Positions 17,960 through 63,273 are shown, counted from the first letter of the stretch. The stretch: DNA of 64,000 bases from Chloroflexota bacterium (GCA_016234495.1 JACRBI010000052.1:13789-77788); one strand, 5' to 3'. The notes: generated by a model from the letters alone, not told the origin. A program made the numbers and translations.

Positions 17960-17972
17960 CTGGAGGTGAATC

Positions 17973-20078: not shown

Positions 20079-20080
20079 CT

Positions 20081-22351: not shown

Positions 22352-22430
22352 ACCAGGTTGGCAAGTTTGAAGGTTGTAAGGTTTGAAAGTTAAACCTGTA
22401 AACTTTTCAACTTGCCAACTTTCAAACCCA

Positions 22431-23010: not shown

Positions 23011-23031
23011 TAATGACTCAAGGAGGCACCA

Positions 23032-23976
23032 ATGCCCATCGAAATTCCAAAAGATAAATGGCCGGGAAGCATCAAGAAAGTCACACTTGGCGCGACGAGC
23101 GCGGAGGGCGGCACACGCGCAAAGTCTGTCACTGTCGGCGGAGAGACGACCCTGCCGTACCTGCATTTTGAAGCGCCGACTCCCAACAAGCCGGTCATCG
23201 CCATTGAGATCAAATCGCACAGGCCTGATGACTGGTCGCCGCTGCTGGGCGAAGTCTGGGGTGACGCGATGAACGATCCCGCTCAATGGGCGAAGAAAGC
23301 CGAAGAAGCAGGAGCAGACATCATCGTCCTCGCGTTGACGCTGGCAGATTCTCCCGAAGATGCGGTGCGAATCGTCAAATCCGTTTTAGCCGCGACGGGA
23401 CTCCCGCTCATCGTCTGGGGACCGGGACAGGCTGAAAAAGATAACGACCTGCTCGTGCCAATCGCCGAAGCGACCAAAGGCGAAAAGCTCATGCTTGGCA
23501 TTTGCGAGGACAAAAATTACCGCACCATTGTCGCGACCGCGATGGCGAATGGACATGTCATTCAAGCCCGCACGCCGATGGATGTGAACCTTGCCAAGCA
23601 GCTTAATATTTTGATCACCGACATGGGCCTGCCCGCCGACCGCATCATGATGGACCCGACAACCGGCGCGCTTGGCTATGGAATTGAATATGGTTATTCA
23701 GTGATGGAACGATTGCGACTCGCCGCATTGCAGGGCGACTCGATGACTCAACTTCCGATGATCGTCACGCCCGGCTTCGAAGCCTGGAAGGCAAAGGAAT
23801 CCAAGGTCGGCGATGGCGTGCCCGAAGCGTGGGGCGATTGGAAATTCCGCGCCATTCATTGGGAAACGCTGACGGCTGTCGCGCTGGTTGAATCAGGCGC
23901 GGACATTATCGTGCTGCGGCATCCTGAATCGGTGAAACGAGTCAAGGAAACGATTGAAGAACTAATCGCAGTTTGA
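23032..23976 (+). CDS. acsD: Corrinoid iron-sulfur protein small subunit
   Basis: TRAKSVTVGGE, DVNLAKQLN, MDPTTGALGYGIEY. Confidence 0.93.
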   Translation: MPIEIPKDKWPGSIKKVTLGATSAEGGTRAKSVTVGGETTLPYLHFEAPTPNKPVIAIEIKSHRPDDWSPLLGEVWGDAMNDPAQWAKKAEEAGADIIVLALTLADSPEDAVRIVKSVLAATGLPLIVWGPGQAEKDNDLLVPIAEATKGEKLMLGICEDKNYRTIVATAMANGHVIQARTPMDVNLAKQLNILITDMGLPADRIMMDPTTGALGYGIEYGYSVMERLRLAALQGDSMTQLPMIVTPGFEAWKAKESKVGDGVPEAWGDWKFRAIHWETLTAVALVESGADIIVLRHPESVKRVKETIEELIAV

Positions 23977-24048
23977 AAGTTTGCAGGTTCACGGGTTTGA
24001 ACGTTCAAACTTTCAAACCTGCCAACCTTTCAACCCAAGGAGATAACC

Positions 24049-25371: not shown

Positions 25372-25408
25372 GCAGGGGCGGGGTAACCCCGCCTCTACAA
25401 CCCCGAAC

Positions 25409-27328
25409 ATGCAACACACCGTCTCCTTCACACACGAAGAAAAACAATCCAGCGTCTCGGTTCCAACCGGGACAATGCTGTCTGATGCCGCGCATCTCGC
25501 GGGTGTTGAGATCGGTCAGCCGTGCGGCGGGCAGGGACGCTGTGGCCGTTGCGCGGTGCTGGTGACGGATGGAAATGTTCGGCGGCGAAGCACGCTGAGA
25601 TTATCACCCGCCGATGTTGAGCAGGGATATGCGCTCGCCTGTCAGACCGTTGTGGAAGGCGATGTCCTCATCAATGTCCCGCCGCAGGAAAAGATCGAAC
25701 GGCGGCTCACGACCGACCGTGTCGTTGCGGAAGTCACCATCCCTGCGGATTATGACTTTGACCAGCATCAAAGCATTCACCGTGTCTATCTCGAACTGAC
25801 TCCGCCGACAATGGAGGATCAAACCGACGATTGGGCGCGCCTGCAAACTGCTCTGCGGACTCAAGCGAACATCCCCGAAGTTACCTGCTCGCTGCACTTC
25901 CTGCAAACTTTGGGAAAAACATTGCGCGATGGCGAGTGGCAGGTGACGCTTGTCGTTGACAGGGACATGGAATTCCCCGAAAAACCAGTGCGCCTGATCG
26001 AAGTATTCCCCGGCCGCGTGGACGATTACTCTCCGCTTTGGGGCTGCGCCATCGACATTGGCACAACAACCGTCTCGCTCTGGCTGGTGGATCTGGTCAG
26101 CGGGCATGTCCGGGCGCAGGTCGCGGAATATAACGGGCAGATCGCGCGCGGCGAAGATGTCATTTCGAGAATCATCTATTCGGGCAAGGCAGGCGGCGAA
26201 CAGGAAATGCGTCAGCTCGTGCTGGATACGATCAACGAGTTGGTCGAGACCGCCTGCAAGCGGGTCAATGCCAAACCGGAAGATGTGATGAAGGCAACCA
26301 TCTCAGGCAACAGCACGATGATGCATCTTCTGCTTGGGATTCCTGCGGGGAGTATTCGGCTTTCGCCGTTCATCACCGCCGTCAACCATCCGCCTGTTAT
26401 GCTGGCAAAGGAAGTTGGAATCAACATCCATCACGGAGGCGCGGTGGATTGCCTGCCCGGTGTGGCAAGCTACGTCGGCGCGGATATTACAGCGGGCGTG
26501 CTTTCTTCAGGGTTGGAACACGCGGAGCATGTCTCGCTGTTCATTGACGTTGGCACGAATGGCGAGATGGTTTTGGGCAACCGCGACTGGCTGGTCACTT
26601 GCGCGTGTTCGGCTGGCCCTGCGTTTGAAGGCGCGGGAGTCGTCAATGGGATGCGCGCAACACAAGGCGCAATCGAAGAAGTGTGGATCAATGGCGAGAC
26701 TTTTGAACCGACTTACCGCGTGATTGGCGGGGGCAAGCCGAAGGGAATCTGCGGCTCGGGATTAATCTCCCTGCTTGCAGAGGCGTTTCTGACGGGAGTC
26801 ATTGATAAGGCTGGGAATGTTAATTTGATGGCTGGCAATTCGCGGGTCAGGGAGGGGGCGCATGGCGGGGAGTATGTCCTTGCCTGGGGCGCGGAATCCG
26901 AATCGGGCGAAGATATTGTCCTCACGCGCGTCGACATCGACAACCTCTTGCGCGCCAAAGCCGCCATCTACGCCGGGTTTAGCATTCTGGCAGATACGGT
27001 CGGAGTCCCGCTGGAAATGGCAGATCGCGTTTTGGTGGGCGGGTCGTTTGGAAAATATATCAACGTGGAAAAGGCTGTGCAGATCGGTTTGCTGCCCGAC
27101 ATGGAATGGAGCCGATTTGAATTTCTTGGCAACACTTCGGTGAAAGGCGCGTATGCCGCGCTGCTCGACTGGCGTATGCGCGACCGCATTACCGAGATTG
27201 CGAAACGCATGACGTATATTGAACTTTCTGCGGACAATAGTTTTTACGACGCGTTCACGTCCGCATTATTTTTGCCGCATACGGATATGAATAAGTTTCC
27301 GAGTGTGGCGGCAGCGTTGGAACGTTAA
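25409..27328 (+). CDS. acsV: Reductive activator of corrinoid protein (2Fe-2S + ASKHA; RACo)
   Basis: CGGQGRCGRC..LACQ, IDIGTTT, DVGTNGE, CSAGPAFEG, GICGSG. Confidence 0.88.
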   Translation: MQHTVSFTHEEKQSSVSVPTGTMLSDAAHLAGVEIGQPCGGQGRCGRCAVLVTDGNVRRRSTLRLSPADVEQGYALACQTVVEGDVLINVPPQEKIERRLTTDRVVAEVTIPADYDFDQHQSIHRVYLELTPPTMEDQTDDWARLQTALRTQANIPEVTCSLHFLQTLGKTLRDGEWQVTLVVDRDMEFPEKPVRLIEVFPGRVDDYSPLWGCAIDIGTTTVSLWLVDLVSGHVRAQVAEYNGQIARGEDVISRIIYSGKAGGEQEMRQLVLDTINELVETACKRVNAKPEDVMKATISGNSTMMHLLLGIPAGSIRLSPFITAVNHPPVMLAKEVGINIHHGGAVDCLPGVASYVGADITAGVLSSGLEHAEHVSLFIDVGTNGEMVLGNRDWLVTCACSAGPAFEGAGVVNGMRATQGAIEEVWINGETFEPTYRVIGGGKPKGICGSGLISLLAEAFLTGVIDKAGNVNLMAGNSRVREGAHGGEYVLAWGAESESGEDIVLTRVDIDNLLRAKAAIYAGFSILADTVGVPLEMADRVLVGGSFGKYINVEKAVQIGLLPDMEWSRFEFLGNTSVKGAYAALLDWRMRDRITEIAKRMTYIELSADNSFYDAFTSALFLPHTDMNKFPSVAAALER

Positions 27329-27381
27329 AAGGTTGGAACGTTCCAACTTTTCAACGTGCAAACTTGAAAACGGAGGTTGTT

Positions 27382-28305
27382 ATGTACATCATTGGCGAAA
27401 ATATTCACATCATTTCGGAGAAGGTTAAGGAGGCATTGACCAATCGCGACCGTGAATTCTTCATGGATCTGGCGGTAAGGCAGGTGGAGGCCGGCGCGAA
27501 AGCAGTGGACATCAATCTCGGTCCGCGCAAAAAGGATTGGGCGGAGGTCTTCCCTTGGATCGTTGAAACAGTTGAAACGGTGGTGGATGTGCCGCTTTCG
27601 ATTGACACCACCAACGTGGACGGAATGGAGGCCGCGCTCAAGACCATCAAGAAGAATCAGGCGATCTTGAATTCAACATCGGCGGAGCCTGAGCGGCTGG
27701 AAAAAATCCCCGCGCTGGCGAAGAAATACAACGCCAAGGTCATCGCGCTGACGATGGGCACGAGCGGCATCCCCGTCGAAGCGGATGCGCGTGTCAACAT
27801 CGCGGTGGAGACTCTCATCCCGCACATGATGGAAATCGGCTTCAACATGAGCGACCTCATCATTGACCCGCTCGTGTTGACCACCAGCGGATGCCAGCAA
27901 TATTGCCCGCACCTGATCGAGACCGTCCGCATGTTGCAATATGCGTGGGACCCCGCGCCGCAAATTTCGGTTGGCTTGAGCAATGTGTCCAACGCTGTGC
28001 CGAATGAAAATCGTCCGCTGATCAATCGTGTGTATCTTTCCATGTTGATGGGTGTCGGCTTGCAAATGATGATCGCCAATCCGTTCGACAAAGAGCAGAA
28101 CGATGTCATCAAATGGATCGAGTCGAAAGACATGTCCACGCCGCTCGCAAGAATCTATAACAAGATCGCGGAACGAACCGCAAACAGCGAAGAACCGCAA
28201 ATCGAAGACTTTGACTTGAAAGACCCCGATCAATCTGCCATTTGGAAAACCACGCAGATTTTATTGAACAAGGTCATTTACGCGGATGCGTATCTGAATA
28301 ATTAG
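27382..28305 (+). CDS. acsE: Methyl-THF:corrinoid protein methyltransferase (pterin-binding)
   Basis: IIGENI, DINLG, SIDT, LNS, IDPLV, VGLSNVS. Confidence 0.85.
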   Translation: MYIIGENIHIISEKVKEALTNRDREFFMDLAVRQVEAGAKAVDINLGPRKKDWAEVFPWIVETVETVVDVPLSIDTTNVDGMEAALKTIKKNQAILNSTSAEPERLEKIPALAKKYNAKVIALTMGTSGIPVEADARVNIAVETLIPHMMEIGFNMSDLIIDPLVLTTSGCQQYCPHLIETVRMLQYAWDPAPQISVGLSNVSNAVPNENRPLINRVYLSMLMGVGLQMMIANPFDKEQNDVIKWIESKDMSTPLARIYNKIAERTANSEEPQIEDFDLKDPDQSAIWKTTQILLNKVIYADAYLNN

Positions 28306-28388
28306 TGATTAGTGATTAGAGATTAGTGATTAGTAATTTTCCTTCAATCACCAATTACTAATTACCAATCTCCTCCGAAGGAGTTCCC

Positions 28389-29879
28389 ATGCCCATCTTC
28401 ACCCCCGGACGCCGCTGGCAGCCAGCCTACTCGCCGTTTAAAAAAGAATCGTTTGGCGATCTACTTCTTGAAAATGTGGAGTATGCCATCAAAGGCCCCC
28501 TCTTTGGCTGCCGCATGTGCGGCAACTGCATGTTACAAGAGACAGCGTTCATCTGTCCCATGGAATGCCCGAAGGGACTGCGCAACGGCCCTTGCGGCGG
28601 CTCCACACCCGAACATTGCTACGTGGATAAAACCCGCCCGTGCATCTGGTACAAAATTTACGAGCGCTCATTTGCAATGGGACGCGAGGAAAATTTACTG
28701 GAAGTCCTCCCCCCGCTGGACTGGGAAAAGGTCGGCACCGAAACGTGGAAGGATGTTTTCCGTCAGGTCAAAAAGATCGGCACAGGCAAGGTTGTGGGCG
28801 GCTTGCTCTTCAAGCCTGCCAAAGAACGATACGAAACCTGGGATATGGTCTTTCGCGGCGTGCGCGAACCTGAATGGTGGAAAGGTGACGACAAATACCA
28901 CGCTCCAGCCTACGCCGAGCCTGTCTCTGATCTGGAGAGAGGATTCAAATCTGGAGAATTCGTCGTCGCGTGCGAGATCGCCCCTCCGCTTGGCATGTCC
29001 ACAAAAAAATTGATCGAGAACATCAAACTCGTCAAACCATATGTGACCGCCATCAACTTCACCGACAACGCCTCCGCAACTCCGCGCATGACCTCATGGG
29101 CATGCAGTAAATTCGCAATCGAGAATGGCGCTGAACCCGTCATGCAGATCGCCGCGCGCGACAGAACACGCGCCAGCCTGCAGGGCGAAATCCTCGGCGC
29201 AACCGCCATGGGCGTGCGGAATGTTTTGTGCGTCACCGGCGACAGCCCCGTGCTCGCGCCCCAGCCGCGCGGCCGCATGGACATCAACGACATGGACGCC
29301 ATTCAAATGATCTGGATCCTGCGCCGAATGCGCGATGAAGGCCACTACCTCGATGGGCGCGAAATCAAATTCCCGCCGAAATTTTTCCTCGGCGCAGCAG
29401 GCTCACCCTTCGCGTCCGAGCCGAAATTCCAGGCATTGCGCGAGCAGAAGAAGGTCAACGCAGGCGCGCAATTCTTCCAGACCAATCTCGTCTACGACAT
29501 TGACCGCATGGAAGTCTGGCTCAATGAACTCGCCAAACGCAGCATCCTCGACAAGGTCTACATCATGATCGGCATCACCCCGCTCAAGAGTTTCAAGATG
29601 ACCAAGTTCATGACCCAGGTCCCCGGCGTGGTCGTGCCGCAGCCCATCCTCGACCGCATGGAAGCCGCCGACAAGGCCGGCAACGCGCAGGAGGAAGGTG
29701 TGCAAATCGCGCTTGAACTCGCGCGCAAGATCAAAGCCTACGAGAATCAAGGCATCCACGGACTCCACATCATGCCCGTCGGCTGGGAAGACATCGTCCC
29801 GCGCATCGTCACCGAAGCCGATATGCTGCCAAAAGGATTCGCCAGGCCTGAACCGCAAGGCGATATGGTTCCCGCATAA
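28389..29879 (+). CDS. metF: Methylene-THF reductase with fused N-terminal MetV-like Cys-rich domain
   Basis: N-terminal CRMCGNC..CPMECPKGLRNGPCGG..C..C; C-terminal NFTDN, RDR, TGD, GAQFFQTN. Confidence 0.88.
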   Translation: MPIFTPGRRWQPAYSPFKKESFGDLLLENVEYAIKGPLFGCRMCGNCMLQETAFICPMECPKGLRNGPCGGSTPEHCYVDKTRPCIWYKIYERSFAMGREENLLEVLPPLDWEKVGTETWKDVFRQVKKIGTGKVVGGLLFKPAKERYETWDMVFRGVREPEWWKGDDKYHAPAYAEPVSDLERGFKSGEFVVACEIAPPLGMSTKKLIENIKLVKPYVTAINFTDNASATPRMTSWACSKFAIENGAEPVMQIAARDRTRASLQGEILGATAMGVRNVLCVTGDSPVLAPQPRGRMDINDMDAIQMIWILRRMRDEGHYLDGREIKFPPKFFLGAAGSPFASEPKFQALREQKKVNAGAQFFQTNLVYDIDRMEVWLNELAKRSILDKVYIMIGITPLKSFKMTKFMTQVPGVVVPQPILDRMEAADKAGNAQEEGVQIALELARKIKAYENQGIHGLHIMPVGWEDIVPRIVTEADMLPKGFARPEPQGDMVPA

Positions 29880-49305: not shown

Positions 49306-49391
49306 TTAGCCAGTTAGCGATTGGCGATTAGCAGTTAGCCAATCGCTAAACGCCAACAGCCAAACGCTAAAAATAATCTTTGAGGAATTTA

Positions 49392-51317
49392 ATGAAACTA
49401 CGCCATATCGTTTTAATTACCGCAATCGCAATTTTTCTCGCCGCGTGCAACTTCACCCTCGCCGAGGATGTCACTCCCCCGCCGAATTATGTGCCGCCCG
49501 CCCCTGCGCCAACCATGGGACCATTGTTCCCGCCAAACACACCGGACGTTGAAAACGGCGCGGCGATCTATGTTGAAAAATGCGAACCCTGCCACGGCGT
49601 CACTGGCTTGGGCGACGGTCCGCAAGGTTTACAGCTGCCGGTTTCGGTTGCCGCAATCGGCTTGCCCGCCACCGCGCAAAAGGCATTGCCCTCCGACTGG
49701 TACATTCAGGTAACGCAAGGCAACCTCGAGCGCTTCATGCCGCCGTTCGCAAGTTTGAACGATCAGGAACGTTGGGACGTGGTTGCCTATGCATTAACCC
49801 TGCACACCAGCCCCGATCAAATCGCGCAAGGCAAAACACTCATTGAAGATAGCTGCGCCGATTGCGCGAAAACTTTCAGCAGCCTCGAGATGATGTCGGC
49901 GCTTTCCGAGAATGACCTGATCCAGTTGATGAAAAACGGTCAGGGTGATATCCCCGCTTTTGGAAAATCCTTTACCGATGAAGAAGCCGCCGCCGCTGCC
50001 GCTTATCTGCGGACTTTGACCTTCGCGGCTCCGCCCGCGCCGGTAGCTGTTGCCGCCACCGAGACACCCGTCAGCACTGAGGCGGCGACAACCCCGTCCG
50101 CTGAGACCACGCCAGTTGATGGCACGCAGGCCGCAGTCACGCCAGAAGCGGGTACTGAAGCCGCTGTCACACCTGTTGACGGCACACCTGCCGCAGCGAC
50201 GGAAACCCCAGTCGAAGCGACATTGGCAGAAGGCATGGGCAGTGTCAGCGGTTCGCTGGATAACCAGACGGGCAAGCCGCTGCCAGCCGATATGAAAGTG
50301 ACTCTGCGCGCCATGGAACACGGCAGCGACCCAAGCACCGGGCCGAAAGAGCTTGAGACGTTTGAAGGGCCGGTCAATGCCGATGGGACTTTTGTTTTCA
50401 ATAATGTTCCAGTGCCTGAAAACCGCATTTACATTGCAGATGTGGATGTGAACGGCTCAATTTATCAATCTGGTTTTACGATTGTGAAGGCCGGCGAAAC
50501 GGATCTGGTCATTCCGCCGATCACCATCTTCGAAGGCACATCCGATTATTCGACCTTGCAGATCACATCCCTGCAAATCTACTTTGACTTTGCTGTTGAA
50601 GGTTCGGCGCAGATGTTCTCGGTGTATTCGATTGCGAACATCACCGACAAGACCGTGACAGTGCAGATGACAGGGGCGCAGGATATTCCATTCATTGCCT
50701 TCGCAGAAGGTGCGGAGCCGCTTGGTTTTCAAGCCACGCAGGATACGGCGGCGTTCGTTCAAACAGCAGACGGCTTTGCCATGCCGCCCAGCACATCCAC
50801 CTACGGCCTGATCGCGTTCTCCTCACTCGTCAAAACTGAAAAAATGGAAATCTCGCAAGCCGCGCTGCTGCCCATTGACAATGTCAGCCTGTTCCTGCCC
50901 GAAGGCATGGAAGCAACAGGTGATGGATTAACAGATGAAGGAGTTCAACAGCAGAATGGCGTGAACTATCACGTGTACTCAGCAGGCAGCCTGGAAAAGG
51001 ATGAAAGCGTCAAGTTCACTGTGACCGGCAAGCCGATCTCGGTGGAAGTGAATCCGGATGTTTTGCAGAACAAGACGCTCCTGATCGGCGTCGGCGCGCT
51101 TGGGCTGGTCCTCGTTCTGGCAGGTGTTTGGTTGTTCCTGCGCGAACCAAAGAAAGTGGACGAAACCGACGACGAAGAGAATGAATTTGATGATCCCGAG
51201 TCGCTCATGGATGCCATCATCGCGCTGGACGATCTGCACCGCAGCGGCAAACTGTCTGATGAAGCCTATCAAAAGCGGCGTGACGAGTTAAAGAGCGCGT
51301 TGAAGAGAAGGTCATAA
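49392..51317 (+). CDS. Lipoprotein c-type cytochrome with Ala/Thr/Pro linker, large exported domain and C-terminal TM
   Basis: Lipobox FLAAC; one CEPCH heme motif; MPPF distal Met. Confidence 0.75.
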   Translation: MKLRHIVLITAIAIFLAACNFTLAEDVTPPPNYVPPAPAPTMGPLFPPNTPDVENGAAIYVEKCEPCHGVTGLGDGPQGLQLPVSVAAIGLPATAQKALPSDWYIQVTQGNLERFMPPFASLNDQERWDVVAYALTLHTSPDQIAQGKTLIEDSCADCAKTFSSLEMMSALSENDLIQLMKNGQGDIPAFGKSFTDEEAAAAAAYLRTLTFAAPPAPVAVAATETPVSTEAATTPSAETTPVDGTQAAVTPEAGTEAAVTPVDGTPAAATETPVEATLAEGMGSVSGSLDNQTGKPLPADMKVTLRAMEHGSDPSTGPKELETFEGPVNADGTFVFNNVPVPENRIYIADVDVNGSIYQSGFTIVKAGETDLVIPPITIFEGTSDYSTLQITSLQIYFDFAVEGSAQMFSVYSIANITDKTVTVQMTGAQDIPFIAFAEGAEPLGFQATQDTAAFVQTADGFAMPPSTSTYGLIAFSSLVKTEKMEISQAALLPIDNVSLFLPEGMEATGDGLTDEGVQQQNGVNYHVYSAGSLEKDESVKFTVTGKPISVEVNPDVLQNKTLLIGVGALGLVLVLAGVWLFLREPKKVDETDDEENEFDDPESLMDAIIALDDLHRSGKLSDEAYQKRRDELKSALKRRS

Positions 51318-53796: not shown

Positions 53797-54007
53797 GAAC
53801 TGGACTTTCGCTTGGCATGGTTTGAACGCTTCGCGTTCAGACCTCGAAGCAAAATCGGGAGATTTTCCACTCCAAACAAAAGTTTCATAAGAAAATCCTG
53901 CTCCTTCTGTTTTGGGAGCAGGAAATATGACAAATTCAATCCATTTAAAGTTGAGAATTGCTGTTATCAGAAAGTCCGCTTATAATGTAGGCGGACTTTT
54001 TGATCGT

Positions 54008-55615
54008 ATGACTCGCCGCTGGCTGCTCGGCCTCTTATCCATTCTGATTGCCTTAACCGGCACAGCTTTTACGCGTGCCCTTGCCGCCAACCCTCCGCCT
54101 GGCCCAGACCGTTTTACAGTCATCACCGTGGACTACACCGCCTTCGAATGGTATTTTGCCACCTGGAAGGGATCGAATGTTGTCTGTTCTGTGAAGACAG
54201 ATCACGAAGGTCCCCCCAACCCGGAGGAAGTATATCGGGATTGCGAACTGGCGGTCTACAATAAGTGGGTCTCCCAGCCGCCGTGCATTTACAGAGATTC
54301 AAGTTTGTGCGATGGGTACTACACTTTCCCCGTAAATAGTTGGGCTGCCCAAAAAGAGATTCCGATGCAGCTCCCACCCCCGGCTGCATGGATTTCGCTG
54401 GAAGACTGCCAGCCGGTGCTGAGCACGTCCACCAATATATGCGAAACCACACCGACGCTCGTGATCGCCGGTTACGAACCTGTTCAGAATGAGCGAATCA
54501 TCCGAATCGAAGGGACATATAATGGTCAGCCTTTCGACTGCGACCAGACCGATGTATGCAAATTCCACATCCCTGAAACGGATGTAAAAGGCGTAAGGGT
54601 GGAGTTCTGGGCTTATTCATCTTATGGCGATAGCAGCCTGATTTACAGTGCGCAAGTCCGTGTGCAAAAAGCAAGCGAGAATGATCCCGACCAGGCCTAT
54701 TGGTATGTGGATGTTCTATCTTCGCAATGGGTTGGACAGGCTGTAGCCATGTGCTCCGACTCATGGAATGTGTTCCCGCCGGTTGGCGGACCTCCCGCCT
54801 GGCTGACCACGCCCAAACAAAGCGAAGAACTCAGCAGCGACATTCCCTACACCTACCTCGCGAAAAATTTAATCCTGCAAGGCGCGGTGGATGCAAGTTC
54901 CTGCACCGATGGCGGAATTTCTCCGGACGGCATGGTGAATCAATGCGGGCTGGAAATGGCGCGCGAAGCAGTGACCAACTGGCAAAATCAATTTGATGAA
55001 TTGATCTTAACCACCGCCCGCGAAACAAGCGTACCCGCGCGATTACTTAAAAATCTATTCGCAAGAGAAAGCCAGTTTTGGCCGGGCAGTGGTCAGGCTC
55101 CGGGTGATACGGGTCTGGGTCAACTGACAGAGAACGGCGCAGATACCACCCTGTTCTGGAATCCATCTTTTTATAATCAGTTTTGTGTGCTGGCATTGCC
55201 GGGCGAAACTTGCGGCAAAGGCTACATGCACCTGACCCCGGAAGAAAGACAGGCGCTGCGCCTCGCGCTGGTGACAAGCGTTAACGCAACCTGCAAAGAT
55301 TGTCCGCTTGGGATCGACCTGGCGCGCGCAGATTTTTCAGTCGGCGTTTTTGCGCACAGCATGATCGGAAGCTGCAAGCAGGCGGGACAGGTCATCACAA
55401 ATTACACCGGCAAATCGCCAGGCGATGTAGCCTCCTATGAAGACCTGTGGAAGTTCTCCCTCGTCAATTACAACGCCGGCGGAGGGTGCCTGGCAGAGGT
55501 CATCACCCGCTCGCTTGGCGAAGGCAACACGATTCTCACGTGGGACAACACTTCGCCATTTATCAGCGGCGCATGTGCCGGCGCGCTGGACTATGTGAAC
55601 GACATCAGCAAATGA
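54008..55615 (+). CDS. Exported Cys-rich protein with C-terminal lytic transglycosylase (SLT)-like domain
   Basis: Signal peptide; ARESQF (catalytic E-S), GLGQL, NYNAG. Confidence 0.65.
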   Translation: MTRRWLLGLLSILIALTGTAFTRALAANPPPGPDRFTVITVDYTAFEWYFATWKGSNVVCSVKTDHEGPPNPEEVYRDCELAVYNKWVSQPPCIYRDSSLCDGYYTFPVNSWAAQKEIPMQLPPPAAWISLEDCQPVLSTSTNICETTPTLVIAGYEPVQNERIIRIEGTYNGQPFDCDQTDVCKFHIPETDVKGVRVEFWAYSSYGDSSLIYSAQVRVQKASENDPDQAYWYVDVLSSQWVGQAVAMCSDSWNVFPPVGGPPAWLTTPKQSEELSSDIPYTYLAKNLILQGAVDASSCTDGGISPDGMVNQCGLEMAREAVTNWQNQFDELILTTARETSVPARLLKNLFARESQFWPGSGQAPGDTGLGQLTENGADTTLFWNPSFYNQFCVLALPGETCGKGYMHLTPEERQALRLALVTSVNATCKDCPLGIDLARADFSVGVFAHSMIGSCKQAGQVITNYTGKSPGDVASYEDLWKFSLVNYNAGGGCLAEVITRSLGEGNTILTWDNTSPFISGACAGALDYVNDISK

Positions 55616-55669: not shown

Positions 55670-56803
55670 TTAATGCACGTGGGTGCAGGGATCTTCTTCC
55701 AGCGGCAGGTTCTTCATCGCAAATCCAAAAGCCATAATGCCAGCCGAGAAGAGACCAATCGTCACGGCCAGTTCCAGAACATGCGGAACGTACGGTTCGC
55801 CCGCCATGCTGACCAAGCCGATATTCAGCCGGTACAGAATCAGCCCAAGCAGGGTCAGCAGGCCGGCGCGGAAGATCCACGGGGAACTCTTGCGGAATTT
55901 CGGGACGAGCAGGATTGCAATCGGCAGGATGATCCCAATCAGGTTTTCCAGAATAAACATGTTGCCCTGGAATGTGCCGCTGAAGATCAGCCCCAATTCA
56001 CCGGCATAGGCGAGGTCGCCCACTTTGATGAGCAGGAGCAATCCCAGCGTAATCAACATGCCGCGGGCGAGTCCCTGAAAAATTTCGTTGCGGACCTGTC
56101 CGCCAAAGACCTGATGTGAAATTGCGCATTCGAAGATCACCATACCAAAACCGACGGCAATGGCCGAGACAAGGAAGATCAACGGAAGCAGGGATGTGTA
56201 CCAAAGCGGATGCATCTTGAAGGGCACAATCAGAAACAGCGACCCCAAAGAGGATTGGTGCATGGTCGAGAGGGTCACGCCGAGAATCACCACCGGGATG
56301 GAAATTTTCTTTACGAACTGCAGCAGGCTTGTCCAGCCGAGCTTCTCGAGCAAGGGCGGGCTGAATTCCAGAAACAAAACCGCAGTGTAGGTCATCACGC
56401 ACATGCCAACCTCAAACAGCGGGGAATGGAGGTTCCAGTAAACGAGCATGTGCCAGATGCGCTGCGGTTGTCCTAAATCCACCAGCAAGGCGAGGATCAC
56501 CATCAGGTAGCCGAGGAAACCGGTCAGCAGGGCCGGGCGCAGTATGGGGCGATACTTCTCGATGTGGAAAATGTGAACGGTCGCCGCGAGAACGAAAGCG
56601 CCAGCCGAGATCGGCACGCCCACGAGCAGATCAAAACTGATCCAGATTCCCCACGGGCGCGAGTCGCTCAAATTGGACACATGGCTAAATCCATCCACCC
56701 AGCGGAACATGGCCGCGAAGGCGCCCAGCGCGGCAAGAAACACCAGGATGAGCGTGCCAATGGAAACCTGTTTCTTGACAACGGGAAGGGTGATGCTCGT
56801 CAT
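55670..56803 (-). CDS. NrfD/HybB/PsrC-family quinol-interacting membrane subunit
   Basis: PWGIWI.FD, VDLGQP.R.W, SPLFEV..C, LSTMHQSSLG. Confidence 0.9.
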   Translation of the reverse strand: MTSITLPVVKKQVSIGTLILVFLAALGAFAAMFRWVDGFSHVSNLSDSRPWGIWISFDLLVGVPISAGAFVLAATVHIFHIEKYRPILRPALLTGFLGYLMVILALLVDLGQPQRIWHMLVYWNLHSPLFEVGMCVMTYTAVLFLEFSPPLLEKLGWTSLLQFVKKISIPVVILGVTLSTMHQSSLGSLFLIVPFKMHPLWYTSLLPLIFLVSAIAVGFGMVIFECAISHQVFGGQVRNEIFQGLARGMLITLGLLLLIKVGDLAYAGELGLIFSGTFQGNMFILENLIGIILPIAILLVPKFRKSSPWIFRAGLLTLLGLILYRLNIGLVSMAGEPYVPHVLELAVTIGLFSAGIMAFGFAMKNLPLEEDPCTHVH

Positions 56804-57672
56804 GACTTCACCTCCTCTTCCGGAGTGGATGTCTTATTTTTGGTGCGCTGATAAACGGCAGACATCGCCCCGCCCACCCCGAAGAATATGGCCGGCACAA
56901 TGTTCAACGCCCATTGAGTGCGATCCGGCAGCGGCTGGGGATCGAGACCCGGCAGGCCAATCGCTTCAAACGGGACACCAGAAAGAATCAGCACCGAAGT
57001 CCCGCCGCCCTCGAATTCGCCATAGACCCGGTCTTCGAAATATTTGCCGGGGTTGACGGAAATTCGCATCTTGGCAATTTCCAGCAGATCGCCGCGCCTG
57101 CCAAAAAGCAAAGCCTGTTTGGGGCAAATATCGGCGCAGGCCGGGCCAGCCTCGCGGTGGTAACACATCTCACATTTGCGAATGAAAGGATACGCCAGCG
57201 ACCAATCATAGCGCGGGACGCCGAAGGCGCAGGCTTGCATACAATAGCGGCAGCCGATGCACTTGTACGCGTCGTAAACCACCGGGCCGTTTTCTATTTT
57301 GTGCAGCGCGCCAACCGGGCACGAGGCCGCGCAGGCCGGGTCTACGCAGTGCATACATTGATATTTGCGGAAAGACTTTTGCGCGCCATCCTCAGATTGG
57401 TACAATTTGATCAACGTGAAGGTGTTCCCGCTCAGGTCGTCCACATTTTCTTCGGGGAGCTTGTTGTAGGCTTTGCAGGCGCGTTCACATTCGCGGCAGC
57501 CGCTGCATTGCGTTGCGTCGTAAAGCAGCGCCCAATGTTCTTCGAGCGGAAGTTCTTCATTGGATGAAGCGCCTGCTGAAACACAAGCATTGGCTGTCAA
57601 AGCCAGGCTGCCGAGACCGGCCCCGGCAATCTTCAAGAATTCGCGGCGGGAGAGATTGGATTTATTTTGCAT
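56800..57672 (-). CDS. Tat-exported 4x[4Fe-4S] subunit (HybA/NrfC-like) with C-terminal TM
   Basis: SRREFLK; CSGCRECERAC, CMHCVDPACAASC, CIGCRYCMQAC, CEMC..CADIC. Confidence 0.9.
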   Translation of the reverse strand: MQNKSNLSRREFLKIAGAGLGSLALTANACVSAGASSNEELPLEEHWALLYDATQCSGCRECERACKAYNKLPEENVDDLSGNTFTLIKLYQSEDGAQKSFRKYQCMHCVDPACAASCPVGALHKIENGPVVYDAYKCIGCRYCMQACAFGVPRYDWSLAYPFIRKCEMCYHREAGPACADICPKQALLFGRRGDLLEIAKMRISVNPGKYFEDRVYGEFEGGGTSVLILSGVPFEAIGLPGLDPQPLPDRTQWALNIVPAIFFGVGGAMSAVYQRTKNKTSTPEEEVKS

Positions 57673-57676
57673 GACG

Positions 57677-58897
57677 TTATTCCTTCCCCTGCGGGTCATT
57701 CTGCTTTGTGGATTTGGAACGGGTCAACCTTGCGCGGAGGCTGGAGAGTACACCCCAAAGTTTTTCTCCCTTTGAGCTGCCTTCCATCTTGCGCGCAGTG
57801 GTGAATTCGAAGACGCCGATGATCGCAGCGACACCCACCAGCCAGTAAGCCCAACTCCAACTACGTTTGGGAGCGGCGACCAGTTTGTTCAAGTCAGTTT
57901 CAGTCAACGCTGGGAAATCTTCGTTCTCCCACGCAATGGTATCCAGTTCTTCGGCAGTGTAGCCGAGAGCCACAAAATCGGCGCGCAGTTTCTCGTCCAT
58001 GATGTGACAGTCGGTGCATTGCGGCGCAGTTTCGAGGCGCGAAACGCGATGGACGACCGGCCAGTTCATCTGGTCTTTGACAAAACTACCCAGCGCTTCA
58101 TGGCTGGTGCCCGTCCGTTCACCCACACTGGCCGAAACCTCGGAGGTGCAGTCGAAGCCCTTGAAGAAGGTGCTGGTATCTTCGTGCTGATAATTGAACA
58201 GGAATGTGTGCGGCACATCCAGGGTGTGGCAGGAGACGCAGGGGATGTTTTCCTGGAGGTGCATTTTGCCGAGAGACTCTTCCATCTCCCCCAAGTCTTC
58301 CGCGCTGTGACAACTTTTGCACATGTCATCCGGGTTATCGAACAACACCTTCTGGCTGTGCGGGTCGTGGCAGTTCACACAGCGGACTTCGTTGGGCGTG
58401 GTATGCCCGGATAAACGAACTTCACCCAGAGTGGTCGGGTGACATGTCCCGCAGTATTCCTCATCTGAGCGCACTGGAATTTCCGCGGGGGGATGCTCCG
58501 CGCTGCCCTGCCCGTGACAGGCCTCGCACGAAACGCCTTCGGCAATGTATTGTTCAGTGTTCGGGTCGTACGTTGCCTTGTGGCACAGGAGGCACTCGTC
58601 AGCATATTCCATGTTAGCCCAGCCTTCCTGAAAAACAGAGTCGTCGAAGGAGTGGGCATGCGGACTTTCCAGCCAGGCATCATGTTTATCCGGGTGGCAT
58701 TCGACGCAGGCCTTTTCGGGTGGAGCGGCTGTCGGCGGCGGAGTGGACTCTGCTACGGGTTGGGAAATGCCGGTTGTCTGCGCGGCAGGCCGGAGGTCGG
58801 TTTGAGCCGATGCAGTGCCGACGAGCAGGATCATGCTTAACAGTCCGATCAGCAATGCGGTGAGAAAAATCTTATTACGATTGAGTCGCATGTTCAT
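57677..58897 (-). CDS. Octaheme c-type cytochrome with signal peptide and C-terminal TM anchor
   Basis: 8 CxxCH: CVECH, CLLCH, CEACH, CGTCH, CVNCH, CKSCH, CVSCH, CTDCH. Confidence 0.9.
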   Translation of the reverse strand: MNMRLNRNKIFLTALLIGLLSMILLVGTASAQTDLRPAAQTTGISQPVAESTPPPTAAPPEKACVECHPDKHDAWLESPHAHSFDDSVFQEGWANMEYADECLLCHKATYDPNTEQYIAEGVSCEACHGQGSAEHPPAEIPVRSDEEYCGTCHPTTLGEVRLSGHTTPNEVRCVNCHDPHSQKVLFDNPDDMCKSCHSAEDLGEMEESLGKMHLQENIPCVSCHTLDVPHTFLFNYQHEDTSTFFKGFDCTSEVSASVGERTGTSHEALGSFVKDQMNWPVVHRVSRLETAPQCTDCHIMDEKLRADFVALGYTAEELDTIAWENEDFPALTETDLNKLVAAPKRSWSWAYWLVGVAAIIGVFEFTTARKMEGSSKGEKLWGVLSSLRARLTRSKSTKQNDPQGKE

Positions 58898-58932: not shown

Positions 58933-59850
58933 TTATGAACTGACTGTCAGCGGGTTGGCCATCTCTGAAGTCAGGAACGTCCAAAAGGCGGCTTGTGATT
59001 TTGACTCGGGGCGGCGGCTGTTGTGGCCGATGTAAATATTGCGGCAGATGTTCAAATCGCGCACACGGATGCGGGCAACTTTGCCGGGGCAGATTCGGTC
59101 AACGACCATTTGCGAAACAAATCCAACTCCGAGCCCTTCCTGGACAGAAAGAGCAATCGCTTCAGAATTTCCGAGAGTGATGAGGATACGCAGGTCTGAG
59201 ATCGAAACCTTGTGCTGTTTGAGCGCCTCGGTGACGGCGTGGAATGTGCCGGAAGAGGATTCGCGCATGATGAAGTCTGCATCGAGCAATTCTTCTGCTT
59301 CTATCTCCTCGCGCTGCGCCCATGGGTGACCCAACGGGGTGATGAGGACGATCGGGTCACAGATGAACGAAACAGCTTCGATATCCGGGTAGTTGGCGTA
59401 GTCCATGCTGAAGAGCGCAAAGTGGACTTCCCCATCCACCAGATTTTGCAGGGCGTCGGTCTGGGGCGTGACCTGACAGGTGACCCGCACCTGGGGATGC
59501 CTGTGATGAAAGCTGGTCAACAAGTGCGGGAGGATGTATTTTCCGGGCGTGGTGCTGCACCCAACGATCAGGTGTCCGAAAATCCCTCCTTTTAGTGAAG
59601 CCATTGTTTCGTCAATCCGCATGGACAGCATGACAGCCTCTCTTGCCAGTGGCAGCAAAGCCATGCCGGCATCGGTCAGTTCCAGGTTTCGGCCATTTCG
59701 GAAAAATAACTGCGTGTCGAAATGGCGTTCCAACCCCTGAATGTGCTGGCTGACGCTGGGCTGGGTCATATGCAGCTGCTGGGCGGCCTGAGTGAAATTT
59801 AGCGCCTCTGCCGCGACTACAAAAACGTTGAGTTGATGGACATCTAACAT
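58933..59850 (-). CDS. LysR-family transcriptional regulator (CysL-like)
   Basis: NFTQAA..LHMTQPSVSQHI..LE, LF.R.GR..ELT.AG, RE.SSGT. Confidence 0.92.
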   Translation of the reverse strand: MLDVHQLNVFVVAAEALNFTQAAQQLHMTQPSVSQHIQGLERHFDTQLFFRNGRNLELTDAGMALLPLAREAVMLSMRIDETMASLKGGIFGHLIVGCSTTPGKYILPHLLTSFHHRHPQVRVTCQVTPQTDALQNLVDGEVHFALFSMDYANYPDIEAVSFICDPIVLITPLGHPWAQREEIEAEELLDADFIMRESSSGTFHAVTEALKQHKVSISDLRILITLGNSEAIALSVQEGLGVGFVSQMVVDRICPGKVARIRVRDLNICRNIYIGHNSRRPESKSQAAFWTFLTSEMANPLTVSS

Positions 59851-59919: not shown

Positions 59920-59970
59920 ATAGTTTAATCTTATTGTACCTGATAAGCAAAAACTATAAGTAAACATTAT
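59920..59970. promoter_or_regulatory. Candidate LysR operator (inverted pair of 15-bp T-N11-A boxes plus a third box)
   Basis: ATAGTTTAATCTTAT (59920-59934), ATAAGCAAAAACTAT (59943-59957), ATAAGTAAACATTAT (59956-59970). Confidence 0.55.
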
Positions 59971-60036
59971 CAATATCACTTGATTGTAGTGTATATTGCT
60001 TATATAATTTGTGAAAAGTTGTACAAGAAGAGGATT

Positions 60037-61491
60037 ATGAAAACCATGAGGCTATTTCGACAGATAAGTTTATTCATCACCACCGCCCTGTTATTTTCAA
60101 GCTGTGCCCCGGCCAGCCCTGTGGATGCCTCCGCCAATCAAACCACTGCCCAACTGGCGGACGTAAAACTTTCCATTCCGGCCGTACTCCAGCCCGAAAT
60201 GGGAACTGGCGAAGGCGCCGGACCGAATGAATGCCTGAACTGCCACTCGGATAAGGATCGCCTGATCGAAACCGCCAAGCCGGTGGTGGAAGCAGCCGAA
60301 AGCGAGTCAAAAGGCGTTGGCTGAGGGGGCGAGGTGGCTCCGTTGGAGCCATGGGAGAAAGTGCTCGTTGACCTCAAGAAGTTCCCCGAGACGGTGCATG
60401 GTCACATTGAATGCACGGCTTGTCATCAGGGAAGCCAATCGTCAGATAAGGAAACAGCCCATAAGGATATGACCGCCCGTCCGAGCGAGGGAGACCCCAA
60501 CGCCTGCGGCGAATGTCACCCGGATGTGGCCGGAGTTTTCTCCAGCAGCCTGCATTCCGATTTGCAGGGATATTGGACAGCCCTGGATGCGCGTTCCGCG
60601 CCGGAGAATCACCCGCCGCTTGAGCAGGCTTTCAATAATCATTGCTCACGCTGTCACACCTCCTGCGGCGACTGCCATGTGTCGCAGCCTGCCAGCGTGG
60701 GTGGCGGCTTTTTCGAAGGACACGTGTTCGCCCGCACCCCGCCAATGACGCGCTCCTGCACGGCCTGCCACGGCAGCCGCGTGGGCAATGAATTCCTCGG
60801 CAAAAATGAGGGCTTCCCCGGCGACGTTCACTTCCGCGACGGGCGCATGAACTGCGTGGATTGCCACAGCGGACATGAACTTCACGGTCAGCCGGCTGAA
60901 TGCACGCAATGTCATACCAGCCCGGAAGCCATGACGATGAAGCCGGCCGATCATCGCTACGATGGCGTGCAGTCCCCCACTTGCGAGTCATGCCACCCCA
61001 ACACCACGGTCGGCAAGGACAACATTGAAATGCACACCGTCCACGGCGCGGATTTATCCTGTCAGATCTGCCATTCGATCACGTACACCAGCTGCGACGG
61101 ATGCCATGTGGCGATCAGCGAAAAGACAGGCAAGCCGTATTTCGAAACCGAGGCAACTTACTTCACCTTCCTGATCGGAAAGAATCCGTTGATCAGTTAC
61201 ACCCGTCCCTACAAGTTTGTGCCGCTGCGGCATGTGCCGGTCGCCGAGGATAGTTTCTCTTTCTACGGCGAGGACCTGCTCCCGAATTTCAACGCAGCCT
61301 CCACCTGGGTCTATGCCACCCCGCACAACATCCAAAGGAACACCCCGCAGGCCGCCTCGTGCAATGCTTGTCATGGCAATGCAAGCTTGTTCCTGACCGC
61401 AGACAAAGTTAATCCCGAGGAGTTGGAAGCCAATCAAAATGTGATCGTTGAGAGAATTCCTGCTCCCGTCGAAGAATCAACACCCAAATAA
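60037..61491 (+). CDS. Probable selenocysteine-containing dodecaheme cytochrome c lipoprotein (484 aa, in-frame TGA at 60322-60324 = residue 96)
   Basis: Track ORFs 59980..60324 and 60334..61491 share a frame and are separated only by TGA (..SKGVG-U-GGEVAPLEPWEK..); lipobox LLFSSC upstream; 1 + 11 CxxCH motifs. Confidence 0.82.
60334..60352 (+). promoter_or_regulatory. Candidate bacterial SECIS hairpin
   Basis: GTGGCTCC-GTT-GGAGCCAT stem-loop starting about 10 nt after the TGA, G-first loop. Confidence 0.7.
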
Positions 61492-61506: not shown

Positions 61507-63222
61507 ATGACCAAGAAACTGTATTTGCCCATCGTTCTATTGCTGGCACTCAGCATTTTACTGGGAGCCTGCGGAACGCCCGCTGTCGCCACTGAACCGC
61601 CAGTTGTGCAGACCGAACCACCAGTCATAGCCACTGAACCGCCTGTTATCGCCCCCGATGCCCAGGCCCTGTTCACCGACCTCATCGCCAGTCTCCCCGC
61701 AGACAAGGGCTATGGTTCGGTCAAGTCTGCCGCGTTGAATGAAGAACTCGCAGACAAGGCGCCCTTCCTGCTCGACGTGCGCGAAACCGCCGAAGTTGAG
61801 AAGGATGGCTACATCGAAGGCTCGGTCAACATCCCGGTGCGCGAAGTGCTCAACAACCTCGACAAACTGCCCGGCCTCGACGAACCCATCGTAGTCACTT
61901 GCGCCTCCGGTCACCGCGGCGGCATGGTGATGGCATCCCTTAAACTGCTGGGCTACACAAACGTCCGCAACCTGAACGGCGGTTTGAATGCGTGGAAGAA
62001 AGCCGAACTGCCAGTTGTGACCGGCTCCATGCCCGCAGCCCCGGCCGTCGTCGGCACAGCCATCATCGCCGACCAGGCACTATTCGACATGCTCAATGAT
62101 TTCCTCTCGACCCTGCCCGAGGGATTCAACGCTGTAAAATCTGACAAACTCTCTGAAGAACTTGCCAGCGGCACCCTGCCCGCGATCATTGACGTGCGCA
62201 GCAAAGCCGAATGGGACAAGGATGGATACATCGAAGGCTCTGTAAACATTCCGTTCAGCGACCTGTTTGCAAACCTCGACCAGATTCCCGCGGATAAAGA
62301 CGCGCGCATCATCGTGCTGTGCGCATCCGGCCACCGCGGCGGAATCACCATGATGGCCCTGCGCCTGATGGGCTACACAAACGTCATCAACCTGAATGGC
62401 GGCTTGAACGGCTGGAAGTCGGCTGGCCTGCCCGTAAAAGGCTTGGTCGCCGAGATGGCAGCCTTCATCACCAGCCTGCCCGCCGATGCCGGTTTCTACA
62501 GCATCAAATCAGACAAGCTCAACGAACTGCTGGTCGAAACCCCGCCCTTCATTGTGGACGTGCGCGAAGCCTCCGAACTCGAAGCCAATGGCTACATCGC
62601 CGGCGCGATCAACATCCCGATCCGCGAACTGCTGAAGAACCTCGACAAACTGCCGGGCAAGGATCAGAAAATCATCATCACCTGCGCATCCGGTCATCGC
62701 GGCTCACTCGGCATGATGTCGCTGCGCCTGCTGGGATATACGGACGTCGTCAACCTCAACGGCGGAATGAACGGCTGGATCAAGGCTGAATTCCCGGTCG
62801 AGAAGACCGCTCCCGCCGCCCCGACGGCTGGCACCGCTCCCGAAGTGGATGCCGACAAACTGGCTGCTCTCGACGCTTACCTGAGCGCCCTGCCTGAAGG
62901 TTTTGGCGCCGTAAAATCCCCCGATTTCAACACCGAGCTCGTTGCCGGGACAATTCCCTTCATCCTCGACGTTCGCACCCAGGAAGAATGGGACGCTGAC
63001 GGCCACATCGACGGCGCTGTGCTGGTTTCGATCAACGACCTGGCCGCCAACCTGGCCAAACTTCCCGCCGACAAGGCTGCGCCCATCGTTGTCACCTGCA
63101 AGTCCGGGCACCGCGGCGCCATGGCGCAAATGTACCTGCAATTCCTCGGCTACACCAGCATCCGCAACTTAAACGGCGGCATGAACGGCTGGATCGCCGC
63201 CGAACTGCCTGTCGTCAAGTAA
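61507..63222 (+). CDS. Lipoprotein with four tandem rhodanese (sulfurtransferase) domains
   Basis: Lipobox LLGAC; four LDVR/IDVR..E..GYI.G.. blocks with loops CASGHR x3 and CKSGHR; NLNGG.N.W. Confidence 0.9.
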   Translation: MTKKLYLPIVLLLALSILLGACGTPAVATEPPVVQTEPPVIATEPPVIAPDAQALFTDLIASLPADKGYGSVKSAALNEELADKAPFLLDVRETAEVEKDGYIEGSVNIPVREVLNNLDKLPGLDEPIVVTCASGHRGGMVMASLKLLGYTNVRNLNGGLNAWKKAELPVVTGSMPAAPAVVGTAIIADQALFDMLNDFLSTLPEGFNAVKSDKLSEELASGTLPAIIDVRSKAEWDKDGYIEGSVNIPFSDLFANLDQIPADKDARIIVLCASGHRGGITMMALRLMGYTNVINLNGGLNGWKSAGLPVKGLVAEMAAFITSLPADAGFYSIKSDKLNELLVETPPFIVDVREASELEANGYIAGAINIPIRELLKNLDKLPGKDQKIIITCASGHRGSLGMMSLRLLGYTDVVNLNGGMNGWIKAEFPVEKTAPAAPTAGTAPEVDADKLAALDAYLSALPEGFGAVKSPDFNTELVAGTIPFILDVRTQEEWDADGHIDGAVLVSINDLAANLAKLPADKAAPIVVTCKSGHRGAMAQMYLQFLGYTSIRNLNGGMNGWIAAELPVVK

Positions 63223-63239: not shown

Positions 63240-63273
63240 AACTGCCCGCGAGTTTCCTCGCGGGCAGTTTTTT
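63240..63273 (+). terminator. Intrinsic terminator ending the multiheme-rhodanese operon
   Basis: AACTGCCCGCGAG-TTTC-CTCGCGGGCAGTT + T run. Confidence 0.85.

Follow-up and report, generated by a model that had tools for sequence, protein, structure and literature searches.

Modules in which a c-type cytochrome, a four-cluster iron-sulfur (FeS) protein and a membrane protein of the NrfD family stand together are known from Hmc/Nhc, NrfBCD, MccACD and Qrc (PMC8076601). In Geobacter, MccSep, a pentahaem cytochrome with one selenocysteine (Sec) and a His/Cys-ligated haem, is a polysulfide reductase essential for the respiration of elemental sulfur, S0 (PMC13510729, August 2026). Besides polysulfide, it reduces selenite; its electron donor awaits identification, and it is encoded (ExtKL, GSU2937-2936 in G. 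sulfurreducens) in the ext cluster together with a rhodanese-like lipoprotein, ExtH (PMC13510729). The locus analyzed here lies in a 64,000-nucleotide stretch from a Chloroflexota bacterium (GCA_016234495.1, JACRBI010000052.1:13789-77788), referred to in full as the window. At positions 55,670 to 58,897, three genes encode an octaheme cytochrome, an FeS protein exported by twin-arginine translocation (Tat) and an NrfD-family protein. Across a LysR gene lies what is called here the right arm, a Sec-containing dodecahaem cytochrome (the selenocytochrome) followed by a rhodanese. The architecture of the three-gene module is not a new category; what is new is its dedicated coupling to an undescribed selenocytochrome/rhodanese pair, one common across Anaerolineae.

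The three genes are proposed to supply the membrane part of an extracytoplasmic respiratory unit encoded by six genes. The NrfD subunit, predicted to be haem-free and of the ten-helix HybB/HmcC type, would exchange electrons and protons with the menaquinone pool, while the Tat-exported subunit would pass electrons through four [4Fe-4S] clusters at the outer face of the membrane and the anchored octaheme would carry them on to the dodecahaem lipoprotein. This selenocytochrome may act on sulfane sulfur (polysulfide or an S0-derived persulfide), or possibly on selenium, with a four-domain rhodanese lipoprotein as the predicted supplier of the substrate. The LysR regulator, acting at CTTAT-N8-ATAAG in the divergent promoter region, would control both arms. 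The direction is most likely from menaquinol to the acceptor, that is, sulfur or polysulfide respiration. With modest confidence, we favor a coupled chain that runs from menaquinone through the FeS protein and the octaheme to a selenocytochrome acting on rhodanese-carried sulfane sulfur. It is suggested tentatively, as something slightly short of probable, that this is a previously undescribed respiratory system of Anaerolineae, whose Sec-dodecahaem terminal enzyme is unrelated to MccSep, fed by a tetra-rhodanese and wired to menaquinone by the octaheme, FeS and NrfD proteins. Gene anatomy, cofactor motifs, family placement, selenoprotein signature and linkage across species were observed; from them we infer that octaheme and selenocytochrome are in physical contact, which substrate is used and which way the electrons run.

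The module consists of the following features:

57677..58897, minus strand: octaheme c-type cytochrome, 406 amino acids, with a general secretory (Sec-pathway) signal peptide, eight CxxCH motifs, a C-terminal membrane anchor and a basic cytoplasmic tail
56800..57672, minus strand: Tat-exported 4x[4Fe-4S] ferredoxin-like subunit of the HybA/HmcB type, 290 amino acids, with a C-terminal membrane helix
55670..56803, minus strand: NrfD-family integral membrane subunit interacting with quinone/quinol, HybB/HmcC type, 377 amino acids, about ten transmembrane helices
55615..55640, no strand assigned: GC-rich hairpin AAAGCGGACGC-AGGC-GCGTCCGCTTT between the convergent nrfD gene and the gene for a 567-residue protein

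An earlier sequence-only reading had described three tightly linked genes, and inspection of the sequence confirms their positions and places them on the minus strand. The octaheme and FeS genes are separated by a 4-nt gap (TAA-CGTC-ATG), and the FeS and NrfD genes share four nucleotides in an ATGA overlap (TCATGA) that recurs in the relatives L003, L004 and L005. The three-gene order is maintained in more than 100 loci, and the eight haem motifs are invariant in 105 octaheme homologues; with both order and overlap conserved among relatives, the arrangement is not accidental. The operon ends at the hairpin after nrfD, likely a bidirectional terminator; the neighboring gene is convergent, and there is no fourth gene.

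The cofactor motifs bear out the identities assigned to the three products. In the octaheme, the CxxCH motifs are at residues 64, 102, 124, 149, 173, 193, 220 and 294. Its N-terminal signal peptide (...GTASA/QT) and its C-terminal hydrophobic helix, followed by a lysine/arginine-rich tail, indicate an exported cytochrome tethered by its C-terminus. The FeS protein bears the twin-arginine motif SRREFLK and matches Pfam Fer4_11 at 62.5 bits; its four Cys groups, CxxCxxCxxxC, CxxCx4CxxxCP, CxxCxxCxxxC and CxxCx8CxxxCP (residues 56, 106, 138 and 167), supply 16 ligand cysteines, enough for four [4Fe-4S] clusters. The NrfD protein has about ten hydrophobic segments by hydropathy and matches Pfam PF03916 at 90.5 bits (cut-off 25.8) over residues 42-327; its sequence contains no haem-c or Cys-cluster motif, the absence of haem b being something that sequence cannot prove. 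The sequence-only reading had also noted that a molybdopterin, hydrogenase or NrfA subunit is missing, and Pfam and NCBIfam scans, which covered the flanking open reading frames (ORFs) and most of the large ones in the window, indeed returned none.

The two subunits that would connect the octaheme to the quinone pool resemble those of hydrogenase 2 (Hyd-2) and Hmc. Among NCBIfam models, the FeS protein scores 250.3 bits against HmcB (cut-off 420) and 238 bits against HybA (cut-off 263). The NrfD protein scores 291.6 bits against HmcC (cut-off 550) and 288.9 bits against HybB (NF008133, cut-off 450), followed by QrcD (115 bits), DsrP (60 bits) and TtrC (21 bits), these three below cut-off, and the same scan gave no match to the E. 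coli-type NrfD model TIGR03148. Of the Nrf models, NrfC reached 84.9 bits with the module (cut-off 377.6) and NrfB 28.5 bits (cut-off 184). In direct alignments, identity is 36% both for the FeS protein with HybA and for the NrfD protein with HybB of E. coli K-12. Mutagenesis has shown that replacing R89, Y99, E148 or H184 of HybB impairs hydrogen oxidation in a protonophore-sensitive manner, in line with coupling to ion translocation (PMC8076601). All four residues are kept in the window NrfD protein, as R89, Y99, E146 and H182. The best scores, the 36% identity and these four residues together describe a HybA/HybB-like pair with its proton pathway intact. By sequence, the two proteins belong to the HybAB/HmcBC branch and are orthologous to no named complex. 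Membership in Hmc, Nhc, Ohc, Nrf or Qrc was rejected because equivalog cut-offs were missed or the defining subunit was absent. A role as anchor of a hydrogenase or molybdoenzyme was also rejected, as the window contains no such subunits; a PhsA-linked relative exists in other genomes.

The octaheme belongs to a family almost confined to Chloroflexota/Anaerolineales in homologue searches. A single-sequence locus search gave only two relatives, and alignment-based searches were required for wider sampling. All members retain eight haem motifs and are anchored at the C-terminus. Outside the motifs, seven histidines are invariant (80, 135, 165, 180, 213, 230 and 283), and H82 or M205 is a common eighth ligand, so that all eight haems can be six-coordinate and no open coordination site is evident. 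The family profile matches DmsE/MtrA-type decahaems, NrfB and other multihaem proteins, and the high-molecular-weight cytochrome c (2e84) only at E = 0.009. Among its best PDB matches are 6r2q chain A, which we take to be MtrA, and 6i5b, presumably OcwA, the deposited names being uninformative. Nothing suggests a catalytic open site in the octaheme, and comparative genomics suggests for it the role of an electron carrier, or wire.

The right arm and the region that separates it from the module contain the following features:

60037..61491, plus strand: lipoprotein dodecahaem c-type cytochrome with 12 CxxCH motifs and an in-frame UGA (TGA at 60322-60324) for Sec at residue 96
60334..60350, plus strand: element resembling a selenocysteine insertion sequence (SECIS), a hairpin GGCUCC-GUU-GGAGCC starting 11 nt past the UGA, with the invariant 17-mer GTGGCTCCGTTGGAGCC
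61507..63222, plus strand: lipoprotein with four rhodanese domains (Pfam Rhodanese x4, 277 bits; NF041203 and PspE above cut-off)
63240..63269, plus strand: strong intrinsic terminator with a 13-bp stem and a T run, ending the right-arm operon
58933..59850, minus strand: LysR-type regulator (Pfam HTH_1 and LysR_substrate), divergent from the selenocytochrome gene
59930..59947, no strand assigned: palindrome CTTAT-N8-ATAAG in the divergent promoter region, candidate LysR operator
59980..60008, plus strand: sigma-70-like promoter TTGATT-17-TATAAT upstream of the selenocytochrome gene, by consensus match only

The signature of a selenoprotein is consistent across species. The Sec codon is TGA in 75 of 75 related loci, flanked by the conserved peptide SExxG[VE]G-U-GG[ED]VAPLEPWEKV, and the 17-mer is identical in 73 distinct sequences, synonymous sites included, with variation in the neighboring codons and no countable covariation. 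Unsplit homologues (P0225, P0230 and P0236) carry Cys at the Sec position (GxGCGGEV). Judged by the conserved TGA, the invariant downstream hairpin and the Cys homologues, the right-arm cytochrome is a genuine selenoprotein family. A minimal E. coli SECIS requires a spacing of 11 nt, which the window hairpin matches. No tRNA genes were found in the 64-kb window. More than 2000 protein clusters belong to the family, which is present in at least 573 species genomes and whose best 80 loci are all from Chloroflexota; no description of a Sec-multihaem cytochrome in Anaerolineae was found in the literature searched. Homology to MccSep was tried and rejected, since chains 9wt8 and 9wt9 are absent from the PDB profile matches up to E = 10. 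An extra invariant Cys, a possible His/Cys haem ligand, is absent from the selenocytochrome.

Less frequently, the Sec position of unsplit homologues is taken by Trp (TGG, a single base away from TGA), Leu or Ser, as in L071 (around position 10306) and the proteins P0235, P0193, P0205 and P0182; these may be decayed or functionally shifted copies. Gene callers split the selenocytochrome at the TGA into fragments of about 95 and 385 amino acids. Many post-UGA fragments (P0130, P0144, P0147 and others) are labeled 'thiosulfate/3-mercaptopyruvate sulfurtransferase' by the Joint Genome Institute (JGI) and hold haem motifs only; the label probably originated with rhodanese genes, fused or adjacent, and was carried over.

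The second protein of the right arm has one active-site loop C[AK]SGHRG in each of its four rhodanese domains, at residues 132, 272, 393 and 531. This tetra-rhodanese is proposed to be a carrier of sulfane sulfur (or selenium). The envelope of Chloroflexota is generally assumed to have no outer membrane, and the extracytoplasmic parts of the unit, which are all tethered by a lipid or a helix, suit such an envelope.

The LysR gene is conserved at the locus across species, and the top NCBIfam match of its product is 'selenium metabolism-associated LysR' (225 bits, cut-off 250). It shares a strand with the octaheme gene, 35 nt upstream of it, and so probably heads the octaheme operon. The motif CTTAT-N6-10-ATAAG occurs 23 times in the window and about 2.9 Mb of fetched loci taken together, and 15 of these sites lie just upstream of a selenocytochrome gene. 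The palindrome, with N7-8 and flanking ATAG/CTATAAG half-sites, precedes this gene in at least 14 other loci (e.g., L003:8898, L012:9890 and L067:9754), which makes CTTAT-N8-ATAAG a plausible LysR operator.

The coupling of the two arms was assessed in samples anchored on the octaheme, scored only where the contig extends far enough, and in one anchored on the selenocytochrome, comprising the best loci of 80 species, 69 of them assessable for a module within 10 kb. Every octaheme homologue of at least 39% identity (L001-L008 and L091-L106) adjoins a selenocytochrome gene, usually with the rhodanese and LysR genes too. Starting from the other side, a rhodanese gene lies immediately downstream of the selenocytochrome gene in 76 of 80 species, and a cytochrome/FeS/NrfD module within 10 kb in 53 of the 69 assessable loci. 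Of these 53 modules, three are of the window type and two combine an HmcBC-like pair with another cytochrome, while about 46 selenocytochrome loci have a shorter octaheme of the same family, joined to an FeS protein that resembles DsrO/QrcC and an NrfD protein that resembles QrcD. The right arm thus appears to be served by two non-orthologous FeS/NrfD pairs. The link between module and right arm persists despite changed flanks and a LysR gene placed either before the octaheme gene or after the rhodanese gene. In L006, the selenocytochrome and the rhodanese are fused in a 1018-residue ORF (5515-8571, minus strand), accompanied by a 90-residue ORF (8581-8853); this fusion is Rosetta-stone evidence that the two proteins work together.

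By sequence comparison, the octaheme is a new family with its own anchor, predicted to dock onto two different FeS/NrfD pairs. In the window type, about 50 additional residues separate haems 7 and 8 (residues ~231-290; 58207-58028, minus strand). As this insert is missing from the shorter octaheme paired with QrcCD-like subunits, it may be a docking adaptation to the HmcBC-like pair.

The sequence-only reading had placed the catalytic partner of the module across the LysR gene. Linkage supports this placement, as orthologues of at least 39% identity always stand beside the right arm, the word catalytic being used by analogy; a module with a different catalytic subunit and without the right arm, sought among the octaheme orthologues, was not found. 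The right arm does lie across the LysR gene, but that gene, co-directional with the octaheme, is no mere spacer. The view of the octaheme as a wire agrees with its carrier-like profile and with the lack of an open haem site, and the designation itself comes from comparative genomics and analogy.

Sulfur genes stand next to the right arm in some relatives. In L056:2958-9571, L066:820-7501 and L100:13240-18462, a gene set for sulfur metabolism lies directly beside the selenocytochrome/rhodanese pair. This set comprises an ArsR regulator (TsoR/BigR-like), a three-haem anchored cytochrome and two YeeE/TsuA-like transporters, together with a PhsA-like molybdoenzyme, which reaches 587 bits with the model for thiosulfate reductase, and its own anchor, made up of an HmcB-like FeS protein and an NrfD protein similar to HybB. 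In L056 and L066, the related FeS/NrfD pair serves the PhsA-like molybdenum subunit, with the right arm still adjoining. The window itself comes from an Anaerolineae genome of a groundwater metagenome, and a search for RNA runs that cover it usefully gave none. At 15798-29879 it holds a Wood-Ljungdahl cluster with genes for two CooC-like ATPases, carbon monoxide dehydrogenase, the beta subunit of acetyl-CoA synthase, corrinoid protein subunits, RACo, a methyltransferase and MTHFR, which marks the host as an anaerobe able to use the acetyl-CoA pathway. The proposal of sulfur reduction draws on the MccSep-like combination of multihaem cytochrome, Sec and rhodanese, on the sulfur genes of L056, L066 and L100 and on this anaerobic host.

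Several observations weigh against the coupled chain or parts of it. The AlphaFold2 model of the octaheme has a predicted local distance difference test (pLDDT) score of 69, and its weak Foldseek matches to HAO and NrfB (E ~0.01) are not significant; the model of a Cys-type selenocytochrome homologue has a pLDDT of 65 and gave no Foldseek match. A distant octaheme clade (29-38% identity, about 50 loci) has modules without the right arm, which adjoin other small multihaem cytochromes or sit directly upstream of ccmF. No module was seen within 10 kb in 16 of the 69 assessable selenocytochrome loci, and clustering of cytochrome genes around the ccm genes could inflate the apparent linkage. Since the selenocytochrome shows neither similarity to MccSep nor an extra conserved Cys, the chemistry of MccSep is not simply transferable to it. 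The nearest characterized relatives of the module (Hyd-2 HybAB, Hmc/Nhc and QrcCD) run toward quinone reduction, which makes the direction uncertain.

The missing modules are largely an effect of the 10-kb flank. In 11 of the 16 loci, the upstream 10 kb are filled by a complete ccm cluster, and in related genomes a paralogous module lies just beyond ccmF, as demonstrated on the same contig for L044/L111. In loci termed pattern D, the absence of a module was taken to be largely apparent, given the paralogous module beyond the ccm cluster. In nine loci (L108, L111, L113, L116, L119, L121, L132, L133 and L155), paralogous modules (29-38% identity, QrcCD type) are immediately upstream of ccmF and divergent from it; beyond the module follow the ccm cluster, a homologue of the 567-residue protein and the selenocytochrome, a layout resembling a 'cytochrome island' in Anaerolineae.

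Running the same assembly backwards is the serious rival. The rhodanese and the selenocytochrome would then oxidize sulfide, polysulfide or thiosulfate, and the module would reduce menaquinone and conserve energy. The closest characterized relatives, HybAB/HmcBC in the case of the window type and QrcCD/DsrOP in that of the common one, are quinone reducers, and polysulfide reduction by menaquinol is described as endergonic (PMC8076601). The proton-pathway residues of HybB are conserved in the window NrfD protein, and the haem-based sulfur oxidizers TsdA and SoxAX have been noted as mechanistic mirror images (PMC13510729). Reduction, however, is what the PhsA-like neighbors in L056, L066 and L100 point to; the sole characterized Sec-multihaem enzyme, MccSep, is a reductase, the host genotype is anaerobic with a Wood-Ljungdahl pathway, and neither a terminal oxidase nor a nitrate reductase was seen in the window. 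On balance, the oxidative direction is considered rather unlikely.

Two lesser rivals keep parts of the assembly and change its purpose. In one of them, the substrate would be selenium instead of sulfur, with selenite reduction or the carriage of Se0/selenide, the rhodanese as a selenium carrier, and respiration, detoxification or selenium supply as the outcome. Such a role would fit the best match of the LysR regulator, the 'rhodanese-related (seleno)protein' model that the rhodanese passes, weak matches to the Geobacter selenite/tellurite-operon proteins ExtM, ExtN and ExtH, and the selenite reduction of MccSep. We regard it as improbable, because the LysR score is below cut-off and models of this kind may merely reflect adjacency to selenoprotein genes, MccSep favors polysulfide about sevenfold, the neighboring PhsA and YeeE genes indicate sulfur, and selenium is scarce in most groundwater, yet at least 573 species genomes carry the locus. 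The other would make the module a quinol:multihaem-cytochrome oxidoreductase of general use, or by itself an outlet for electrons to the cell exterior, adjacent to the selenocytochrome only through the clustering of cytochromes in the ccm region. The paralogous modules near other small multihaem cytochromes or ccmF, the ccm cluster that abuts the window locus and the resemblance of the octaheme to MtrA/DmsE-type conduits are all compatible with such an outlet. It is nevertheless very improbable: the clade of at least 39% identity is never away from the selenocytochrome, even where flanking ccm genes are missing (L003, L005, L006 and L007), the divergent promoter with a shared candidate LysR operator is conserved, and the exchange of one module type for another while the partner is retained argues for a selected functional pairing.

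Other features of the window surround the locus. The 567-residue protein (53912-55615, plus strand) is secreted and Cys-rich, with only a faint match to SLT (lytic transglycosylase), and related genomes always have its homologue between the respiratory locus and ccmC. The ccm cluster includes a gene for a 645-residue protein (49380-51317, plus strand), in a position conserved in related genomes; the protein has cytochrome c domains of class I, a long linker rich in Thr, Pro and Ala, a large domain without haem and, at its C-terminus, a membrane helix. Farther away, an S-adenosylmethionine (SAM) riboswitch (Rfam RF00162, 76.9 bits; 4793-4911, plus strand) precedes genes for a Cys/Met pyridoxal-phosphate (PLP) enzyme (5033-6322) and homoserine O-succinyltransferase (6376-7296).

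Few bacteria of groundwater, sediments and wastewater sludge are as abundant and as little understood as Anaerolineae, and their respiration has mostly been guessed from gene lists. If the coupled chain is real, the locus would be the first to encode the entire route between quinone and substrate for haem- and selenium-based respiration of sulfur (polysulfide or S0). The selenocytochrome would then be a second, independently evolved family of Sec-multihaem enzymes, present in at least 573 species-level genomes, with the window as a rare variant bearing an HmcBC-type module. MccSep is the only characterized selenium-dependent multihaem sulfur reductase, and the window locus offers a testable electron path for a different selenocytochrome. 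The use of one octaheme family on two non-orthologous FeS/NrfD pairs also bears on the recruitment of NrfD-type modules. Thousands of metagenome records misannotate the post-UGA fragments as hypothetical or as 'sulfurtransferase'.

Compared with known systems, the right arm shares with MccSep a multihaem c-type cytochrome, Sec encoded by an in-frame UGA with a downstream hairpin, Cys homologues, an extracytoplasmic location and a rhodanese-like lipoprotein in the cluster. It differs in having 12 haems and Sec at residue 96, whereas MccSep has five haems, Sec in a C-terminal Ig-like domain and a His/Cys-ligated haem 2, and, unlike MccSep, it is encoded alongside a quinone-coupled module. In PsrABC/PhsABC with the Sud sulfur transferase of Wolinella, an NrfD-anchored FeS module operates with an extracytoplasmic carrier of the rhodanese type. 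The window has both elements and no molybdopterin subunit at the locus; the octaheme and the Sec-dodecahaem cytochrome take the place of PsrA/PhsA.

With NhcABCD and HmcABC(DEF) of Desulfovibrio, the module has in common the three-part architecture at the outer face, the ten-helix type of NrfD and its best scores, to HmcB and HmcC. In contrast to their 9- or 16-haem cytochromes of the c3 type, the window cytochrome has eight haems, an unrelated family and its own C-terminal anchor; genes for NhcD or the cytoplasm-facing HmcDEF subunits are missing, and the partner is a selenocytochrome with a rhodanese instead of a soluble cytochrome c3. HybA-HybB of E. coli Hyd-2 provides the likeness in the Tat signal, the four clusters, the C-terminal helix and the proton-coupling residues of HybB; here, no [NiFe] hydrogenase genes occur in the locus or the scanned window ORFs, and a cytochrome occupies the place of HybOC. 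The Ohc complex of Desulfovibrio (OhcBAC) also combines an octaheme periplasmic cytochrome with an FeS membrane-associated protein. Its OhcC is described as a haem-b membrane protein (PMC4641369), whereas the window has an NrfD-family membrane subunit and an octaheme of another family.

The best functional analogy is to NrfBCD of E. coli, in which the pentahaem wire NrfB feeds NrfA, and to MccACD/SirACD. Their sequences are only distantly related to those of the window, where there is no nrfA gene and the partner is unrelated to NrfA or MccA. The order of parts is nonetheless the same, as in each case an FeS/NrfD quinol dehydrogenase would deliver electrons to a non-catalytic multihaem wire and, through it, to an external catalytic multihaem enzyme.

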